Part shown: one piece after another, positions 2,301 to 46,949 of the stretch | Position numbering within the stretch: the first letter of the stretch is position 1 | Layout of the letters: every line of letters begins with the position of its first letter | Assembly: GCF_045037415.1 (NCBI RefSeq) | Contig: NZ_CP173438.1 | Origin: Escherichia coli | Lineage (GTDB): Bacteria; Pseudomonadota; Gammaproteobacteria; Enterobacterales; Enterobacteriaceae | Direction: 5' to 3' (one strand) | Length of the DNA stretch: 64,000 nucleotides | Position numbers and translations under genes: made by a program | Notes under the pieces: model-generated | The model's input: the letters and a program-made list of their open reading frames with translations, nothing else | Told to the model about the DNA's origin: nothing | Databases searched by the model: none

Positions 2301-3100
2301 AAGATTTCATCACCGAAGCATGGCTAAGAGCGAACCATACGCTCAGCGAAGGCGCAGAGATCCATCTCCCTGCGGACAGTCGCCTGACGCCCTCTGCCCG
2401 GGAGTTACTGGAAAGCCGCCATCTGCGCATCAAGTTTATTGACGAGCAGGGCCGCCTGTTTGTTGACGATGAACAGCAGCAGCCGCAGCCCGTTCACGGG
2501 CTGACCAGTAGCGATGAACATCCGCAGGCGTGCTGCGAACTGTGCCGCCAGCCGGTGGCAAAAAAGCCGGATACGCTGACTCACCTGTCGGCGGAAAAAA
2601 TGGTTGCCAAAAGCGATCCGCGTCTGGGTTTTCGCGCTGTTCTCGACAGCACCATTGCGCTGGCAGTGTGGCTGCAAATTGAACTGGCAGAACCGTGGCA
2701 GCCGTGGCTGGCGGACATCCGCTCGCGTCTTGGCAACATTATGCGTGCCGATGCGCTGGGGGAACCGCTGGGCGAGCAAGCGATTGTCGGGCTTTCTGAC
2801 GAAGATCTGCATCGGCTTTCTCACCAGCCGCTGCGTTATCTCGACCACGATCATCTGGTGCCGGAAGCCAGCCACGGGCGCGATGCGGCGTTGCTCAATC
2901 TGCTACGCACCAAAGTGCGGGAAACAGAAACCGTAGCGGCGCAGGTCTTTATCACCCGCAGCTTTGAAGTATTACGCCCGGACATTTTGCAGGCGCTGAA
3001 CCGCCTTTCCAGCACGGTCTACGTGATGATGATCCTGAGCGTAACGAAGCAGCCGCTAACGGTGAAGCAGATCCAACAACGACTGGGGGAAACGCAATGA
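2297..3100 (+). CDS. eutT: EutT, ethanolamine utilisation cob(I)alamin adenosyltransferase
   Basis: 267 aa; 4-bp start/stop overlap with eutQ; synteny. Confidence 0.9.
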
Positions 3101-4113
3101 TTATTAAACGTTGTCGTGAACTGGCGTTGCGAGCGCCCGCCAGAGTAGTTTTTCCGGATGCGTTAGATCAACGTGTGCTGAAAGCTGCGCAATATTTACA
3201 TCAACAAGGTCTGGCAACGCCCATTCTGGTCGCCAATCCGTTTGAACTTCGTCAGTTTGCGCTCAGTCACGGCGTGGCGATGGACGGGCTACAGGTGATA
3301 GATCCGCATGGCAACCTCGCAATGCGGGAAGAATTTGCTCATCGCTGGCTGGCCCGCGCGGGCGAAAAAACGCCGCCGGATGCGCTGGAAAAACTTACCG
3401 ATCCGCTGATGTTCGCCGCTGCAATGGTCAGCGCCGGTAAAGCGGATGTCTGTATCGCGGGCAACCTCTCTTCCACGGCGAATGTGCTGCGTGCCGGATT
3501 ACGCATTATCGGCTTGCAGCCAGGCTGTAAAACGCTCTCATCCATTTTCCTGATGCTGCCACAGTACAGCGGTCCGGCGTTGGGTTTTGCCGATTGCAGC
3601 GTGGTGCCACAGCCGACGGCGGCACAACTGGCGGATATCGCGCTTGCCAGCGCCGAAACCTGGCGCGCCATCACCGGAGAAGAACCGCGCGTGGCGATGC
3701 TGTCGTTTTCCAGCAACGGTAGTGCCCGTCACCCCTGTGTTGCCAACGTCCAGCAGGCGACAGAAATCGTCCGTGAGCGCGCACCAAAGCTGGTTGTCGA
3801 TGGCGAGTTGCAGTTTGACGCCGCCTTCGTGCCGGAAGTGGCGGCGCAAAAAGCGCCTGCCAGCCCGTTACAGGGCAAAGCTAATGTGATGGTTTTTCCG
3901 TCGCTGGAAGCCGGAAATATTGGCTACAAAATCGCACAACGACTTGGCGGATATCGTGCCGTCGGGCCATTGATACAAGGACTTGCCGCGCCGATGCACG
4001 ATCTCTCTCGTGGTTGTAGCGTGCAGGAAATTATCGAACTGGCGCTGGTGGCAGCTGTGCCGCGTCAGACAGAAGTGAACCGCGAAAGCAGTTTACAAAC
4101 ACTGGTTGAATGA
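3097..4113 (+). CDS. eutD: EutD, phosphotransacetylase
   Basis: 338 aa PTA-family sequence; overlaps eutT stop. Confidence 0.9.
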
Positions 4114-4850: not shown

Positions 4851-6254
4851 ATGAATCAACAGGATATTGAACAGGTGGTGAAAGCGGTACTGCTGAAAAT
4901 GCAAAGCAGTGACACGCCGCCCGCCGCCGTTCATGAGATGGGCGTTTTCGCGTCCCTGGATGACGCCGTTGCGGCAGCCAAAGTCGCCCAGCAAGGGTTA
5001 AAAAGCGTGGCAATGCGCCAGTTAGCCATTGCTGCCATTCGTGAAGCAGGCGAAAAACACGCCAGAGATTTAGCGGAACTTGCCGTCAGTGAAACCGGCA
5101 TGGGGCGCGTTGAAGATAAATTTGCCAAAAACGTCGCTCAGGCGCGCGGCACACCAGGCGTTGAGTGCCTCTCTCCGCAAGTGCTGACTGGCGACAACGG
5201 CCCGACCCTGATTGAAAACGCACCCTGGGGCGTGGTGGCTTCAGTGACGCCTTCCACTAACCCGGCGGCAACCGTAATTAACAACGCCATCAGCCTGATT
5301 GCCGCGGGCAACAGCGTCATTTTTGCCCCGCATCCGGCGGCGAAAAAAGTCTCCCAGCGGGCGATTACGCTGCTCAACCTGGCGATTGTTGCCGCAGGCG
5401 GGCCGGAAAACTTACTGGTTACCGTAACAAATCCGGATATCGAAACCGCGCAACGCTTGTTCAAGTTTCCGGGCATCGGCCTTTTGGTGGTGACCGGCGG
5501 CGAAGCGGTAGTAGAAGCGGCGCGTAAACACACCAATAAACGTCTGATTGCCGCAGGCGCTGGCAACCCGCCGGTAGTGGTGGATGAAACCGCCGACCTC
5601 GCCCGTGCTGCTCAGTCCATCGTCAAAGGCGCTTCTTTCGATAACAACATCATTTGTGCCGACGAAAAGGTACTGATTGTTGTTGATAGCGTAGCCGATG
5701 AACTGATGCGTCTGATGGAAGGCCAGCATGCGGTGAAACTGACCGCAGAGCAGGCGCAGCAACTGCAATCGGTGTTGCTGAAAAATATCGACGAGCGCGG
5801 AAAAGGCACCGTCAGCCGTGACTGGGTTGGTCGCGATGCGGCGAAAATCGCGGCGGCAATCGGCCTTAAAGTTCCGGAACAAACGCGACTGCTGTTTGTA
5901 GAAACCACCGCAGAACATCCGTTTGCCGTGACCGAACTGATGATGCCGGTGCTGCCCGTCGTGCGCGTCGCCAACGTGGCGGATGCCATTGCGCTGGCGG
6001 TGAAACTGGAAGGCGGTTGCCACCACACGGCGGCAATGCACTCGCGCAATATCGAAAACATGAACCAGATGGCGAACGCCATTGATACCAGCATTTTCGT
6101 TAAGAACGGACCGTGTATTGCCGGGCTGGGGCTGGGCGGGGAAGGCTGGACCACGATGACCATCACCACGCCAACCGGTGAAGGGGTAACCAGCGCGCGG
6201 ACGTTTGTCCGTCTGCGTCGCTGTGTATTAGTCGATGCGTTTCGCATTGTTTAA
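4851..6254 (+). CDS. eutE: EutE, CoA-acylating acetaldehyde dehydrogenase
   Basis: 467 aa aldehyde dehydrogenase-family sequence; synteny. Confidence 0.9.
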   Translation: MNQQDIEQVVKAVLLKMQSSDTPPAAVHEMGVFASLDDAVAAAKVAQQGLKSVAMRQLAIAAIREAGEKHARDLAELAVSETGMGRVEDKFAKNVAQARGTPGVECLSPQVLTGDNGPTLIENAPWGVVASVTPSTNPAATVINNAISLIAAGNSVIFAPHPAAKKVSQRAITLLNLAIVAAGGPENLLVTVTNPDIETAQRLFKFPGIGLLVVTGGEAVVEAARKHTNKRLIAAGAGNPPVVVDETADLARAAQSIVKGASFDNNIICADEKVLIVVDSVADELMRLMEGQHAVKLTAEQAQQLQSVLLKNIDERGKGTVSRDWVGRDAAKIAAAIGLKVPEQTRLLFVETTAEHPFAVTELMMPVLPVVRVANVADAIALAVKLEGGCHHTAAMHSRNIENMNQMANAIDTSIFVKNGPCIAGLGLGGEGWTTMTITTPTGEGVTSARTFVRLRRCVLVDAFRIV

Positions 6255-40587: not shown

Positions 40588-41352
40588 TCAGAAATTAAAT
40601 TTGATGGAGTAGATTATCGCATCCTGGTAAAAATCTTCGCCCAGTTTGTCATCCGCATAACGATACTGAATCCCTGTGGTGATGTGTGAAGTTGCATTCC
40701 ACCAAAGTGCGACGGCACCGTTCAGACCTTCTTTGCCGCCATTACCTGCCGCGTAGGTGGCATCACGATCAAACTCGTACTCGTTCCAGTTGGTGAGGGT
40801 GAATTTCTCACTGCCCAGCATAAAGCTGTAACCTGCAACCCAACCGGCGACATAACCGTTATCGCCGGTATAATAGGTTTGGTCTGTATAGCGTTTTGCA
40901 AAGAACGGTTTGAACCACCAACCGCTGCCGGTGAAATTGTAGCCGATCCCGTAAAGGAACATATCGTCATGGAAATTTACACGATTCGCAGAACCGTAGG
41001 TGCCATACGCATGCAAGTAGAGATTAAATCCGGTGTCACCCAGGTAAATACGGTTGGTATTTTTAAATGTATAACGCTGCTCGCTACCCGGTTTATCATG
41101 ACGATCATTATAAAAGTTTTCCCAGTCGAAGAACCCGTACATTTCTCCCCAACTAAAGTTAGCGCCGCCTTCCAGTTCCAGATATCCAAAATCATCTTTG
41201 TGTGATTTGGTCGACGATTTCTCAGTGGTTCTGCTAGTCCAGTCAAGATAATGAATACCTATATCAGCAAAACCGCCTTTAAATTCTGCATGGGATACTG
41301 CTGGTATCGCCAATACAGAAGAGAGTGTCAGAGTAAAAAGATGTTTTTTCAT
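40588..41352 (-). CDS. yfeN: Tsx-like outer-membrane nucleoside channel protein YfeN
   Basis: 254 aa; signal peptide, aromatic-rich beta-barrel-like sequence ending in F. Confidence 0.85.
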   Translation of the reverse strand: MKKHLFTLTLSSVLAIPAVSHAEFKGGFADIGIHYLDWTSRTTEKSSTKSHKDDFGYLELEGGANFSWGEMYGFFDWENFYNDRHDKPGSEQRYTFKNTNRIYLGDTGFNLYLHAYGTYGSANRVNFHDDMFLYGIGYNFTGSGWWFKPFFAKRYTDQTYYTGDNGYVAGWVAGYSFMLGSEKFTLTNWNEYEFDRDATYAAGNGGKEGLNGAVALWWNATSHITTGIQYRYADDKLGEDFYQDAIIYSIKFNF

Positions 41353-41600: not shown

Positions 41601-42434
41601 ATGTATCAGGCTCAGTTTTCTCATAACCCACTGTATTGCGTAGATATTATCAAGACTTATAAACCTGATTTCACGCCACGAGTGGCCTTTATTTTAGGTT
41701 CCGGGCTGGGCGCGCTGGCCGATCAGATTGAGAACGCGGTCGCAATTTCCTACGAAAAGCTGCCTGGGTTCCCGGTAAGTACCGTACACGGTCATGCGGG
41801 TGAGCTGGTGCTGGGGTATCTCCAGGGGGTGCCAGTGGTGTGCATGAAAGGTCGCGGACATTTCTACGAAGGTCGTGGGATGACCATCATGACGGATGCA
41901 ATCCGTACCTTTAAGTTGCTGGGCTGCGAGTTGCTGTTCTGCACCAATGCGGCTGGCTCACTGCGCCCTGAAGTGGGGGCCGGCAGTCTGGTCGCATTGA
42001 AAGATCACATCAACACCATGCCGGGAACGCCGATGGTGGGTCTTAATGATGAACGTTTTGGTGAGCGCTTCTTCTCGCTGGCGAATGCCTACGATGCGGA
42101 ATACCGCGCACTGTTACAAAAAGTGGCGAAAGAAGAGGGGGTCCCTCTGACGGAGGGCGTGTTCGTCTCGTATCCGGGGCCGAATTTCGAGACTGCGGCG
42201 GAAATTCGCATGATGCAAATTATTGGTGGGGATGTTGTTGGTATGTCTGTGGTGCCTGAGGTTATTTCAGCTCGCCATTGCGAACTTAAAGTCGTTGCGG
42301 TCTCTGCGATTACCAACATGGCGGAAGGTCTGAGTGACGTGAAGCTTTCTCATGCCCAAACGCTGGCAGCAGCGGAACTCTCAAAGCAAAACTTTATTAA
42401 TCTTATTTGCGGCTTTCTGCGCAAAATTGCCTGA
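41601..42434 (+). CDS. xapA: xanthosine phosphorylase (purine nucleoside phosphorylase II)
   Basis: 277 aa PNP family. Confidence 0.9.
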   Translation: MYQAQFSHNPLYCVDIIKTYKPDFTPRVAFILGSGLGALADQIENAVAISYEKLPGFPVSTVHGHAGELVLGYLQGVPVVCMKGRGHFYEGRGMTIMTDAIRTFKLLGCELLFCTNAAGSLRPEVGAGSLVALKDHINTMPGTPMVGLNDERFGERFFSLANAYDAEYRALLQKVAKEEGVPLTEGVFVSYPGPNFETAAEIRMMQIIGGDVVGMSVVPEVISARHCELKVVAVSAITNMAEGLSDVKLSHAQTLAAAELSKQNFINLICGFLRKIA

Positions 42435-42494: not shown

Positions 42495-43751
42495 ATGAGC
42501 ATCGCTTTGCGCTTAAAGGTAATGTCCTTTTTGCAATATTTTATCTGGGGGAGCTGGCTGGTTACCCTCGGTTCTTACATGATTAATACCCTTCATTTCA
42601 CCGGCGCTAATGTTGGCATGGTTTACAGTTCCAAAGGGATCGCCGCGATTATTATGCCTGGTATAATGGGGATCATCGCAGACAAATGGCTGCGTGCAGA
42701 ACGTGCATACATGCTGTGTCACCTGGTGTGTGCGGGCGTACTTTTTTATGCGGCATCCGTAACTGATCCGGATATGATGTTTTGGGTGATGTTAGTCAAT
42801 GCGATGGCGTTTATGCCGACTATTGCGTTATCGAACAGCGTCTCTTATTCCTGTCTTGCCCAGGCAGGGCTTGACCCGGTGACCGCTTTCCCGCCCATTC
42901 GCGTTTTTGGTACGGTGGGGTTCATTGTCGCCATGTGGGCAGTAAGCTTGCTGCATCTGGAATTGAGTAGTCTGCAACTGTATATCGCGTCCGGTGCGTC
43001 ATTGCTGCTGTCGGCTTATGCGCTGACTTTGCCGAAGATTCCGGTTGCGGAGAAAAAAGCGACTACATCGCTTGCCAGCAAGCTGGGTCTGGATGCCTTC
43101 GTGCTGTTTAAAAATCCACGCATGGCTATCTTTTTCCTCTTCGCCATGATGCTGGGTGCGGTGCTGCAAATTACCAACGTTTTTGGCAACCCGTTCCTGC
43201 ATGATTTCGCCCGTAATCCTGAGTTTGCTGATAGCTTCGTGGTGAAATACCCGTCCATTTTACTGTCAGTTTCACAGATGGCTGAAGTCGGTTTCATTCT
43301 GACGATACCGTTCTTTTTGAAGCGTTTCGGTATTAAAACCGTCATGCTGATGAGTATGGTGGCGTGGACGCTGCGCTTTGGCTTCTTTGCCTATGGCGAT
43401 CCATCACCAACCGGGTTTATTTTGCTGTTGCTGTCGATGATTGTTTACGGTTGTGCATTCGATTTCTTCAATATTTCTGGTTCGGTCTTTGTCGAACAGG
43501 AAGTTGATTCCAGCATTCGTGCCAGCGCCCAGGGCCTTTTTATGACGATGGTAAATGGCGTCGGCGCATGGGTTGGCTCGATTCTGAGCGGTATGGCAGT
43601 GGATTACTTCTCGGTGGATGGCGTAAAAGATTGGCATACCATTTGGCTGATGTTTGCAGGGTATGCTCTTTTCCTCGCAGTGATATTTTTCTTTGGGTTT
43701 AAATATAACCATGACCCTGAAAAGATAACGCATCGTTCAGTTACACATTAA
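42495..43751 (+). CDS. xapB: xanthosine/nucleoside MFS permease
   Basis: 418 aa, 12-TM-type. Confidence 0.9.
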   Translation: MSIALRLKVMSFLQYFIWGSWLVTLGSYMINTLHFTGANVGMVYSSKGIAAIIMPGIMGIIADKWLRAERAYMLCHLVCAGVLFYAASVTDPDMMFWVMLVNAMAFMPTIALSNSVSYSCLAQAGLDPVTAFPPIRVFGTVGFIVAMWAVSLLHLELSSLQLYIASGASLLLSAYALTLPKIPVAEKKATTSLASKLGLDAFVLFKNPRMAIFFLFAMMLGAVLQITNVFGNPFLHDFARNPEFADSFVVKYPSILLSVSQMAEVGFILTIPFFLKRFGIKTVMLMSMVAWTLRFGFFAYGDPSPTGFILLLLSMIVYGCAFDFFNISGSVFVEQEVDSSIRASAQGLFMTMVNGVGAWVGSILSGMAVDYFSVDGVKDWHTIWLMFAGYALFLAVIFFFGFKYNHDPEKITHRSVTH

Positions 43752-43803
43752 AAGGATTCGCAGCTCTGTTCCTTGGGGCTGCTTTTATGATAAAGGTTAA
43801 TTA

Positions 43804-43962
43804 GTGAAAGATATTTTATTTTCTTCTGGCGTTGGTTTTGGCATTGGTGCTTTGTTTACAATCGTGCGATTACCTATTCCTGTTCCAAATGTATTGCCGG
43901 GTATATTATCCATCGTGTTTATGTATGTCGGATATCTGGTGGTGAAATACTTTATGCCATGA
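43804..43962 (+). CDS. putative small two-helix membrane protein (XapX-like) between xapB and xapR
   Basis: 52-codon ORF with GTG start (VKDILFSSGVGFGIGALFTIVRLPIPVPNVLPGILSIVFMYVGYLVVKYFMP), two hydrophobic segments; below ORF-track size cut-off; identified by reading the sequence. Confidence 0.4.
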   Translation: MKDILFSSGVGFGIGALFTIVRLPIPVPNVLPGILSIVFMYVGYLVVKYFMP

Positions 43963-44002
43963 TAATTTAATACGATGTATTTATTATATGGAGCACTTAA
44001 TT

Positions 44003-44887
44003 ATGGAACGCGTATATAGAACAGATCTTAAGTTGCTCCGTTATTTTCTTGCCGTAGCGGAAGAGTTGCATTTTGGTCGCGCAGCAGCGCGTTTAAATAT
44101 GTCTCAGCCTCCGCTCAGTATTCATATTAAAGAGCTGGAAAATCAACTCGGCACGCAGCTTTTTATTCGCCATTCGCGCAGCGTCGTACTGACACACGCG
44201 GGCAAAATCTTGATGGAAGAATCGCGTCGATTGCTGGTGAATGCAAATAATGTATTGGCTCGGGTTGAACAAATAGGTCGGGGAGAAGCAGGGCGGATTG
44301 AACTCGGGGTTGTGGGAACGGCAATGTGGGGACGGATGCGCCCGGTTATGCGGCGATTCCTTAGAGAAAATCCTAACGTTGAAGTTCTGTTTCGCGAAAA
44401 GATGCCCGCGATGCAAATTGCCTTGCTGGAACGCCGCGAACTTGATGCCGGGATCTGGCGAATGGCGACAGAACCACCGACTGGTTTTACCAGCTTACGG
44501 TTGCATGAATCGGCGTTTCTGGTGGCGATGCCTGAAGAGCATCATCTCTCATCATTTTCCACCGTCCCGCTGGAAGCGCTACGTGACGAGTATTTCGTTA
44601 CAATGCCGCCCGTGTACACTGACTGGGATTTTTTGCAGCGAGTTTGCCAGCAGGTGGGATTTTCACCGGTTGTTATTCGCGAAGTTAATGAACCGCAAAC
44701 GGTACTCGCCATGGTCAGTATGGGTATTGGTATCACATTGATAGCGGACAGCTACGCGCAGATGAACTGGCCCGGTGTCATATTCCGTCCGCTCAAAGAA
44801 CGCATCCCGGCAGACTTATATATTGTTTATGAAACGCAGCAGGTGACGCCCGCGCTGGTTAAACTGCTGGCGGCGTTGGCGCAGTAG
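44003..44887 (+). CDS. xapR: LysR-family activator of xapAB
   Basis: 294 aa from internal ATG (MERVYRTDLKLLRYFLAV...). Confidence 0.9.
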   Translation: MERVYRTDLKLLRYFLAVAEELHFGRAAARLNMSQPPLSIHIKELENQLGTQLFIRHSRSVVLTHAGKILMEESRRLLVNANNVLARVEQIGRGEAGRIELGVVGTAMWGRMRPVMRRFLRENPNVEVLFREKMPAMQIALLERRELDAGIWRMATEPPTGFTSLRLHESAFLVAMPEEHHLSSFSTVPLEALRDEYFVTMPPVYTDWDFLQRVCQQVGFSPVVIREVNEPQTVLAMVSMGIGITLIADSYAQMNWPGVIFRPLKERIPADLYIVYETQQVTPALVKLLAALAQ

Positions 44888-44916
44888 ATGAGAGGCACGG
44901 GAACTGCCGGACATAG

Positions 44917-44946
44917 TTGGTCTGATAAGCGAAGCGCATCAGGCAA
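44917..44946. repeat. REP-like palindromic element
   Basis: ttggtctgataagcgaagcgcatcaggcaa. Confidence 0.6.
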
Positions 44947-44966
44947 TTTCGCAAATTGCAGATAGC

Positions 44967-44995
44967 AAAAAAACGCCTTTAGGGCGCTTTTTTAC
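44967..44995 (-). terminator. intrinsic terminator downstream of the tRNA Val-Val-Lys operon
   Basis: cgccctaaaggcg hairpin flanked by A7 and T6. Confidence 0.7.
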
Positions 44996-44997
44996 AT

Positions 44998-45073
44998 TGG
45001 TGGGTCGTGCAGGATTCGAACCTGCGACCAATTGATTAAAAGTCAACTGCTCTACCAACTGAGCTAACGACCC
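44998..45073 (-). tRNA. lysV: tRNA-Lys (anticodon UUU)
   Basis: Reverse complement matches the canonical E. coli tRNA-Lys sequence (GGGTCGTTAGCTCAGTTGGTAGAGCAG...CCA). Confidence 0.95.
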
Positions 45074-45533: not shown

Positions 45534-46949
45534 ATGAAAATCAAAACTCGCTTCGCGCCAAGCCCAACAGGCTATCTGCACGTTGGCGGCGCGCGTACTG
45601 CTCTTTACTCCTGGCTTTTTGCACGTAACCACGGCGGTGAGTTCGTGCTGCGTATTGAAGACACCGATCTTGAGCGTTCCACGCCGGAAGCTATCGAAGC
45701 CATTATGGATGGCATGAACTGGCTGAGCCTGGAGTGGGATGAAGGTCCGTACTACCAGACCAAACGTTTTGATCGCTACAACGCGGTGATCGATCAGATG
45801 CTGGAAGAGGGCACAGCTTATAAATGCTATTGCTCTAAAGAGCGCCTGGAAGCGCTGCGCGAAGAGCAAATGGCGAAAGGTGAGAAGCCGCGTTATGACG
45901 GTCGCTGCCGCCACAGTCATGAGCATCACGCTGATGATGAGCCGTGTGTCGTACGTTTTGCTAACCCGCAGGAAGGTTCTGTTGTTTTTGACGATCAGAT
46001 CCGTGGTCCGATCGAGTTCAGCAACCAGGAGCTGGATGATCTGATTATCCGCCGTACCGATGGTTCCCCAACCTATAACTTCTGTGTGGTTGTCGATGAC
46101 TGGGATATGGAAATCACCCACGTTATCCGTGGCGAAGACCATATCAACAACACACCGCGCCAGATTAACATTCTTAAGGCTCTGAAAGCGCCGGTACCGG
46201 TTTATGCGCACGTTTCTATGATCAACGGCGATGACGGTAAAAAACTGTCCAAACGTCACGGGGCGGTCAGCGTAATGCAGTATCGTGATGATGGTTATCT
46301 GCCAGAAGCACTGCTGAACTATCTGGTGCGTCTGGGCTGGTCCCACGGCGATCAGGAAATCTTCACTCGTGAAGAGATGATTAAATACTTCACTCTGAAT
46401 GCCGTCAGCAAATCTGCCAGTGCGTTCAACACCGACAAGCTGCTGTGGCTGAACCATCACTACATTAACGCGTTGCCGCCGGAGTATGTTGCTACTCACT
46501 TACAGTGGCACATTGAGCAGGAAAATATCGATACCCGTAACGGCCCGCAGCTGGCTGATCTGGTGAAACTGTTGGGCGAACGCTGCAAGACGCTGAAAGA
46601 GATGGCACAGAGCTGCCGTTATTTCTACGAAGATTTTGCTGAGTTCGATGCCGACGCCGCGAAAAAACATCTGCGTCCGGTAGCGCGCCAGCCGCTGGAA
46701 GTGGTTCGTGACAAACTGACTGCGATTACTGACTGGACCGCTGAAAACGTTCATCACGCTATTCAGGCGACGGCGGATGAGCTGGAAGTGGGTATGGGTA
46801 AAGTTGGTATGCCGCTGCGTGTCGCCGTAACCGGTGCGGGGCAGTCTCCGGCGCTGGATGTTACCGTTCACGCAATCGGTAAGACCCGCAGTATCGAGCG
46901 TATCAACAAAGCGCTGGCTTTTATTGCTGAACGCGAAAATCAGCAGTAA
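45534..46949 (+). CDS. gltX: glutamyl-tRNA synthetase
   Basis: 471 aa; class I HIGH motif ([12 protein letters not shown]) and KMSKS-like KLSKR. Confidence 0.95.

Follow-up and report, generated by a model that had tools for sequence, protein, structure and literature searches.

The tuning of transporters by small membrane proteins is well established. In Escherichia coli, AcrZ works with AcrB, KdpF belongs to KdpFABC, MgtS is paired with MgtA/PitA and SgrT with PtsG; all four are small accessory proteins of transporters, and AcrZ, KdpF and MgtS have one membrane helix each. The standard descriptions of nucleoside-utilisation operons do not, to our knowledge, include a small membrane component, and a literature search for one in these operons found none. 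The xap genes form a textbook inducible operon that has been used in quantitative models of genetic switches, and the curated E. coli K-12 xap locus consists of xapA, xapB and xapR only.

The gene analysed here, xapX, lies between xapB and xapR in a 64 000-nt stretch of an E. coli genome (contig NZ_CP173438.1), which we call the window. XapX shares with AcrZ, KdpF, MgtS and SgrT a very small size, a hydrophobic or membrane-acting character and a coding position in or beside a transporter operon. It has no sequence relationship to any of these four proteins and differs from AcrZ, KdpF and MgtS in having two predicted helices, and its adjacency to a transporter is one of gene order. With the TIGR03510/DUF1427 family it has in common the same length, two hydrophobic helices and a (K/R)LPIPxP turn. 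Genes of this family are embedded in nucleoside clusters (xapABR; deoCABD with nupC; cdd; add; tsx) in several lineages.

A 52-codon reading frame in the xapB-xapR spacer

The gene order in the window is yfeN (on the opposite strand), xapA, xapB, xapX and xapR, followed by tRNA genes and gltX (Table 1). The original prediction had placed a GTG-initiated ORF of 52 codons with two hydrophobic segments in the spacer between xapB and xapR, with an AG-rich stretch about 8 nt upstream. The ORF was found at 43804-43962, as predicted: it starts with GTG, ends with TGA after 52 codons and, according to the ORF list, encodes MKDILFSSGVGFGIGALFTIVRLPIPVPNVLPGILSIVFMYVGYLVVKYFMP, which contains both of the hydrophobic stretches that had been quoted. 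The spacer measures 251 nt, from the end of xapB at 43751 to the RefSeq-annotated start of xapR at 44003, and the AG-rich stretch is an AAAGG located 7 nt 5' of the GTG. There is an in-frame TAA at 43798-43800 and, therefore, the GTG is the only usable start for xapX. In MG1655 the ORF occupies complement 2,522,518-2,522,676.

The length of the ORF was considered as evidence for a gene and rejected. A complete ORF of at least 52 codons was present in 8.4% of shuffled spacers when only the forward strand was read and in 11.6% when both strands were read. Thus, since 8-12% of shuffled spacers equal it, the length of xapX is not beyond chance.

Table 1. Features of the xap region, in coordinates of the window
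Feature	Coordinates	Strand	Basis
yfeN, Tsx-family nucleoside-specific outer-membrane channel, divergent from xapA	40588..41352	-	ORF list, RefSeq
xapA, xanthosine phosphorylase, first gene of the cluster	41601..42434	+	ORF list, RefSeq
xapB, xanthosine/H+ symporter (MFS, nucleoside:H+ symporter type)	42495..43751	+	ORF list, RefSeq annotation of identical region
9-bp hairpin (43760-43782) followed by TTTT, weak terminator-like/attenuating element	43760..43786	+	Terminator scan, folding
Shine-Dalgarno-like AAAGG	43792..43796	+	Sequence; motif in all 7 orthologous loci
xapX CDS	43804..43962	+	ORF list, TIGR03510 match, RefSeq WP_000651752.1, dN/dS 0-0.13
xapX codons 2-20, predicted helix 1 (G9/G11/G13/G15, F18; glycine-rich)	43807..43863	+	AlphaFold2
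xapX codons 21-30, proline-rich turn R-L-P-I-P-V-P-N	43864..43893	+	Family frequencies; non-helical in AlphaFold2 model
xapX codons 31-50, predicted helix 2 (G33, G43 kept)	43894..43953	+	AlphaFold2, family frequencies, alignment
Sigma-70 promoter-like ATGATA-17-TATTAT, overlapping the xapX stop; candidate xapR promoter	43959..43987	+	Consensus match only
xapR, LysR-type activator, 40 nt 3' of the xapX stop	44003..44887	+	ORF list, RefSeq

Family membership and annotation status

The original prediction had noted a resemblance to small XapX-type proteins and proposed a search against the family model. This search was clearly positive, with XapX scoring 64.2 bits against the NCBIfam model TIGR03510 ('XapX'; cut-off 27.8 bits) at E = 5.8e-18, over positions 2-48 of the 49 in the model. 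The same model matched all 26 of the diverse relatives in our family alignment. A Pfam scan of E. coli XapX gave no family at E <= 1, and the gathering score of PF07235 (DUF1427) was not reached; PF07235 matched 21 of the 26 aligned relatives, with a best E-value of 1.6e-7. Because PF07235 was reached only through these relatives and through the DUF1427 name used by RefSeq, XapX was filed under TIGR03510 and PF07235 was treated as the same superfamily. The score, the ~50-residue two-helix form, the signature residues described below and the position between xapB and xapR all identify XapX as a XapX-domain protein. The family name presumably points to a gene beside the xap genes, that is, to the xapB-xapR position itself.

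The family is broad. A profile search of 1.84 billion representative proteins returned 75 clusters, and a word-indexed search returned 3,236 clusters at 90% identity, nearly all with members of 50-60 residues, from Firmicutes, Vibrionaceae, Endozoicomonas, Verrucomicrobia and others.

The ORF had been described as unlisted. This is correct for the curated K-12 MG1655 record, which has nothing between xapB (b2406) and xapR (b2405), so that the best-studied of all bacteria has no xapX in its reference annotation. It is not correct for RefSeq, where ~4,000 complete E. coli genomes carry the gene under the name 'DUF1427 family protein'. The query region was present in 4,064-4,084 of 5,426 complete E. 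coli genomes (~75%), and this label was found in all 29 of the sampled E. coli genomes that had the whole region. The exact XapX sequence occurs in at least 1,000 contigs, with UniRef and NCBI names of 'DUF1427 family protein' or 'XapX domain', and a 2024 survey of enterobacterial intergenic small ORFs listed the same peptide as 'xapX domain protein, TRANSMEMBRANE'. Neither the gene nor its family is therefore new, as both were already known as predictions. Our literature search found no functional study of XapX or DUF1427, and the sole paper that it found to discuss DUF1427 treats it as a family of unknown role. What is added here is a quantification of the purifying selection on the gene, and the recurrence of its relatives in independent nucleoside operons and in phage replication modules.

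Purifying selection on the xapX frame

Over a 551-bp region around xapX, the window and K-12 are ~94% identical, and the encoded XapX proteins are identical (WP_000651752.1). All seven differences inside xapX fall at third codon positions and are synonymous (7 synonymous, 0 non-synonymous); the chance of seven third-position differences out of seven is (1/3)^7, or ~5e-4. An Escherichia sp. genome adds five further differences within xapX, again all synonymous (5 and 0).

The order xapA-xapB-xapX-xapR is found in five genera, Escherichia, Pseudocitrobacter, Salmonella, Entomohabitans and Chimaeribacter. The six loci used for synteny came from a contig search by exact peptide words of one protein, XapX, and xapX was located between xapB and xapR in K-12, Escherichia sp., Pseudocitrobacter, Salmonella enterica, Entomohabitans and two Chimaeribacter species. 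yfeN is syntenic in the xap neighbourhoods of Salmonella, Pseudocitrobacter and Entomohabitans. In every locus compared the xapX orthologue is exactly 52 codons long; the start codon is GTG or ATG, and an AAGG or AAAGGAG lies 5' of it in 7/7 orthologous loci.

Nei-Gojobori dN/dS values, calculated with unsaturated synonymous sites, were 0.058 for Pseudocitrobacter, 0.129 for Salmonella and 0.057 for Entomohabitans, within an overall range of 0-0.13. The dN of XapX across orthologues (0.12-0.22) is similar to that of XapB (0.08-0.16) and below that of XapR (0.12-0.28). Among eight xapX orthologues, variable sites at codon positions 1, 2 and 3 numbered 18, 8 and 44, respectively, and the xapX frame was the only one to hold a single terminal stop in all eight. 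The other frames and the opposite strand were considered as coding alternatives and were ruled out by their stop-codon counts and by the codon-position pattern. An Rfam search of the xapB-xapR spacer gave no match, only one meaningless sub-threshold entry.

Conservation of the frame, on which the original prediction had been staked, came out in its favour: all five genera keep an open frame of 52 codons, at a dN/dS of 0-0.13. It is very likely that xapX is a genuine protein-coding gene and that it is translated. The family match, the variation within Escherichia and the variation across genera are three independent lines of evidence for a gene; as the main explanation, they exclude an ORF that arose by chance, an RNA element and a mere uORF.

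Predicted structure of XapX

XapX is strongly hydrophobic, with a GRAVY of 1.31 over its 52 residues. An AlphaFold2 model based on the 26-sequence alignment (mean pLDDT 88.4) has a helix at residues 2-20, a turn at 21-30 and a second helix at 31-50. XapX is thus modelled as two helices joined by a proline-rich R-L-P-I-P-V-P turn, and both helices would be inserted in the membrane. There is one conserved positive charge in the loop and a net charge of approximately one positive at the two ends combined, a distribution that favours neither orientation in the membrane. Neither a sequence-profile search of the PDB nor a Foldseek search of the PDB with the model found a related structure.

The family signature comprises G11, G15, F18, (K/R)22-L-P-I-P-A-P, G33, G36, I37, G39 and G43. 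Among 287 family members, G11, G15 and F18 are present in 98-99%, and the turn residues K/R22, L23 and P24/P26/P28 in 96%, 95% and 98% each. All of the signature residues found at 95-99% in these members (G11, G15, F18, the turn, G33, I37 and G43) are present in XapX of the window. In place of G36 and G39, which ~80% of the family have, it carries S and F, respectively. The enterobacterial xap-linked clade thus differs from the XapX/DUF1427 family at large by G36S, G39F and a change of A27 to V, with the other signature residues kept.

Some relatives showed weak Pfam similarity to other small membrane proteins. Eight of the 26 resembled SpoVAB (best E = 7.1e-5), a membrane protein that belongs to the dipicolinate channel complex of spores, and three of the 26 resembled the LydA holin family (E = 2.6e-4); other small membrane families were also hit. 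The SpoVAB and LydA similarities could be driven by composition.

Expression of xapX and elements of the spacer

Directly 3' of the xapB stop lies a 9-bp hairpin with a predicted stability of ~-13 kcal/mol and a following T-tract (Table 1). The window and K-12 differ on both arms of the hairpin, with all nine pairs kept. At the same position Salmonella has an unrelated 10-bp stem with a T-run and Chimaeribacter a GC-rich stem without one; in Entomohabitans no hairpin was found after the xapB stop. As compared between these loci, the element is conserved in position, not in sequence. Its coordinates in three further loci are 3159-3185 (K-12, L002), 4951-4976 (L028) and ~4950-4971 (L008).

The hairpin ends 21 nt before the xapX GTG, a gap that is too short for a promoter. 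Therefore, xapX is expected to be transcribed through the hairpin from upstream, together with xapA and xapB. The xapX transcript would be a read-through product, probably from the xanthosine-induced xapA promoter, and the weak hairpin would act as a partial stop that probably lowers the dose of xapX. A promoter scan of the spacer gave one sigma-70-like site against 1.8 expected by chance. This site, which overlaps the xapX stop and otherwise lies 3' of xapX, is a candidate that would serve xapR. The spacer between xapX and xapR is 100% identical in the window and K-12.

The locus is mentioned neither in the text of two E. coli small-ORF ribosome-profiling papers nor in one supplement of such a study, which is a weak negative. 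The operon would not be expected to be induced without xanthosine, and this may bear on its absence there.

Other features of the spacer were noted. A mini-ORF at 43787-43804 (ATG ATA AAG GTT AAT TAG) begins in the T-tract, and its stop overlaps the xapX GTG (TAGTG). Pseudocitrobacter (ATG ATA AAA GGT GTT CTG TGA) and Salmonella (ATG AAC AAG GAC ACA GCA TGA) have mini-ORFs that differ in sequence but share the same ATG and an end that likewise overlaps the xapX start. The overlap could reflect translational coupling or could be coincidence. A genomic SELEX study reported binding of the RpoN (sigma-54) holoenzyme in the xapB-xapR spacer. Inside xapX, at 43827-43843, the sequence TGGCGTTGGTTTTGGCA resembles the consensus TGGCAC-N5-TTGC with a G for the critical C, and is a candidate RpoN site only.

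Gene neighbourhoods of XapX relatives

A metagenome DNA-pattern scan for the family signature gave at least 120 loci, and 119 of those listed carry a family member. The sample is biased by the pattern chosen, so the proportions among the matches listed are indicative only: 64 of the 119 were phage-like, 13 lay after argS and 26 were other. After clustering and annotation of the neighbours, 18 loci among the matches listed had nucleoside genes beside the XapX-family gene (X).

Several distinct nucleoside arrangements were found. In Vibrio and Photobacterium the homologue lies between a CNT-type nupC and deoC-deoA-deoB-deoD, and the order tatD-nupC-X-deoC-deoA was found at ~10 metagenome loci among the matches listed. 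Also among these matches were two loci with the order add-X-deoD, one with nupC-add-X, in which the last two genes overlap by 1 nt, and three with a SorC/DeoR-type regulator followed by deoC-X-cdd, with spacers of 16-27 nt. Two further loci among the matches listed have a deoA-type thymidine phosphorylase gene on the contig of X, within ~1-2 kb of it. Enterobacteria have a second DUF1427 paralogue, MDIILSLIAGAIIGFIFTLIKLPIPAPAAWPGVFGIIGVLSGNQIFNYLFNK (L150-L152, 6001-6159), which is common in Citrobacter and was found in 1,253 blocks of the assembly collection; tblastn of this paralogue against plasmids gave no match. In Citrobacter and relatives it heads a cluster that encodes a DeoR-HTH/PfkB protein, a Tsx channel, an inosine-uridine nucleoside hydrolase and nupC. 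Altogether, at least five nucleoside arrangements besides xap carry X, or at least six when xapA-xapB-X-xapR is included. These designs combine different enzymes and two unrelated permease families, and all of them serve the uptake and breakdown of nucleosides.

The gene immediately 5' of X encodes a transporter in E. coli (xapB), in Vibrionaceae (nupC) and in Endozoicomonas (an RND pump). There is no adjacent transporter in add-X-deoD and deoC-X-cdd.

Beyond the nucleoside operons, X follows DUF1934-argS in Bacillales, and is found after an FMN reductase gene and near a CsoR-like repressor gene. XapX-family genes are common in phage genomes. In the phage-like loci X is part of modules for DNA metabolism, together with genes for RecA, SSB, a Cas4-like nuclease, QueC and MazG; at L053 (X at 2980-3135) and ~60 other metagenome loci among those listed (L030-L149), X sits between RecA/resolvase and Cas4-like nuclease genes. 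The L053 contig also carries the large terminase subunit and is clearly a tailed phage. In the archaeal Haloarcula californiae tailed virus 1 (HCTV-1), gene 83 (46369-46518), which lies beside the clamp loader, is a XapX homologue, and Geobacillus virus E3 has an unannotated XapX-family ORF at 75919-76077. Neither the bacterial nor the phage-borne members matched a PHROG family.

The functional evidence on XapX comes from these neighbourhoods, which support a link to nucleoside utilisation without singling out a transporter as the partner.

Possible roles of XapX

Our overall reading, which we consider probable, is that xapX is a genuine XapX/DUF1427 gene whose product is an inner-membrane part of nucleoside uptake or catabolism. 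The tie to nucleoside utilisation is likewise likely, judging by the recurrence of gene order. A point against it is that most of the sampled members, among the matches listed, lie outside nucleoside contexts.

Among the mechanisms considered, a specific partnership with a permease is the most likely, and we put it forward tentatively, as its probability is below one half. XapX would join a nucleoside permease in the inner membrane, XapB in this case and NupC-type carriers in relatives, and, in the manner of other very small membrane proteins, would adjust how stable or how active the permease is. A permease partner is favoured because the gene just before X is xapB, nupC or an RND pump gene in each of three lineages, and because of the small-protein precedent. 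Against a single binding interface, the transporters adjacent to X belong to unrelated families (MFS, CNT and RND); because these are structurally unrelated, one conserved permease-binding interface is hard to picture.

The absence of an adjacent transporter in add-X-deoD and deoC-X-cdd, where X stands among genes for cytosolic enzymes, fits better with a protein that acts alone. XapX might self-assemble through the small-residue faces of its helices into a conduit, for example for the free nucleobase (xanthine, hypoxanthine or uracil) that the phosphorylases, hydrolases and deaminases encoded nearby set free, or for nucleosides, without being a permease subunit. The regularly spaced glycines of the family, G11/G15 in helix 1 and G33/G36/G39/G43 in helix 2, would suit such an assembly. 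What is common to all of the nucleoside contexts is enzyme chemistry, not transporter type, and the phage copies lie in modules of nucleotide and DNA metabolism. However, two of the four helix-2 glycines have been lost in the E. coli clade, and the PDB searches by sequence and by fold returned no relative and hence no structure that supports a pore. We regard a conduit as the main alternative, but as unlikely.

It is also possible that the location of X in the xap operon is a historical accident and that XapX is a general-purpose small membrane protein, acting for example in membrane-protein biogenesis or lipid packing. The breadth of the family (3,236 clusters at 90% identity) is consistent with this, as are its contexts after argS in Bacillales, after FMN reductase and RND pump genes, near a CsoR-like repressor gene and in phages. 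However, X is found in at least five independent nucleoside architectures, far above expectation for genes that are estimated to make up well under 1% of a genome, and its position between xapB and xapR has been kept across Enterobacterales even though synonymous sites are saturated. A general-purpose role therefore seems to have only a small chance of being correct.

The spacer itself brings up a regulatory uORF, in which the act of translation alone would matter, for example by controlling read-through into or translation of xapR, and the peptide would be functionless. The xapX stop does lie 40 nt before the xapR start and overlaps the promoter-like site, and there is a hairpin 5' of xapX. 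Such a role does not account for the strong purifying selection on the amino acids (dN/dS 0-0.13) or for the occurrence of the family in many operons without xapR, and the xapX-xapR gap is ~110-120 nt in Entomohabitans and Chimaeribacter; we consider it very improbable.

Similarly small is the probability that XapX damages membranes as a holin-like protein or type I toxin. The suggestion draws on the weak LydA similarity of 3/26 relatives (E = 2.6e-4), on similar hits to other small membrane families and on the many phage-borne relatives. The phage copies, however, are located in replication/recombination modules rather than lysis cassettes and do not qualify as holins, there is no PHROG holin match, and the bacterial copies are fixed in catabolic operons, with xapX itself in ~75% of E. 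coli genomes.

Finally, a chance ORF in a non-coding spacer, conserved through DNA or RNA elements such as a terminator or the xapR promoter, would agree with the 8-12% of shuffled spacers that hold an ORF of equal length and with the curated K-12 annotation, but it is already contradicted by the codon-position pattern (18/8/44), by the 7/7 and 5/5 synonymous differences within Escherichia, and by the HMM match (E = 5.8e-18) in a spacer without an Rfam match, and is scarcely credible.

Returning to XapX as a membrane component of nucleoside utilisation, a more general form of the proposal is speculative and, in our estimation, on the doubtful side. XapX/DUF1427 may be a widespread and overlooked membrane module of nucleoside/nucleobase traffic that boosts or gates uptake or lets the base leave. 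Bacteria would have taken it up again and again, in xap, deo, add, cdd and nucleoside-hydrolase operons whose permeases are unrelated, and in tailed-phage replication modules it would feed DNA synthesis.

If XapX alters XapB activity or the flux of xanthosine or xanthine, then models and knockouts that consider only xapA, xapB and xapR are incomplete, and xapAB deletions may also remove or disturb xapX. The gene offers an entry point to the thousands of membrane proteins of ~50 residues, as it comes with a nucleoside-utilisation hypothesis and a phenotype in growth on xanthosine.

Variation of the xap locus

The xap locus of E. coli (41601-44887 in the window) exists in two classes of allele, with 1,395 genomes at 99% identity or more to the window and 2,425 at 90-95%. 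Synonymous divergence of the locus from K-12 is 0.13-0.36, which is high for one species. About 1,340 of the 5,426 complete E. coli genomes had no match to the query region. Strain RM14721 (L003) has an IS1-bounded deletion that extends from inside yfeN to inside xapR.

Downstream of xapR, K-12 has an annotated RtT-like sRNA repeat of 126 nt before the tRNA-Lys gene (L002, 4395-4520; compare ~44888-45000 in the window). In strain SK1144, which equals the window over the 551-bp query, this repeat is absent, and the gap from xapR to the tRNA gene is ~110 nt compared with ~265 nt in K-12.

In Pseudocitrobacter vendiensis (L006, 2798-6081), xapA and xapB are almost E. coli-like, with dS of 0.17-0.29, and divergence is much greater in xapX (dS 0.60) and xapR (dS 1.22). 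This pattern of divergence suggests a recombination or transfer breakpoint within the xap locus of this species, near the xapB-xapX junction.
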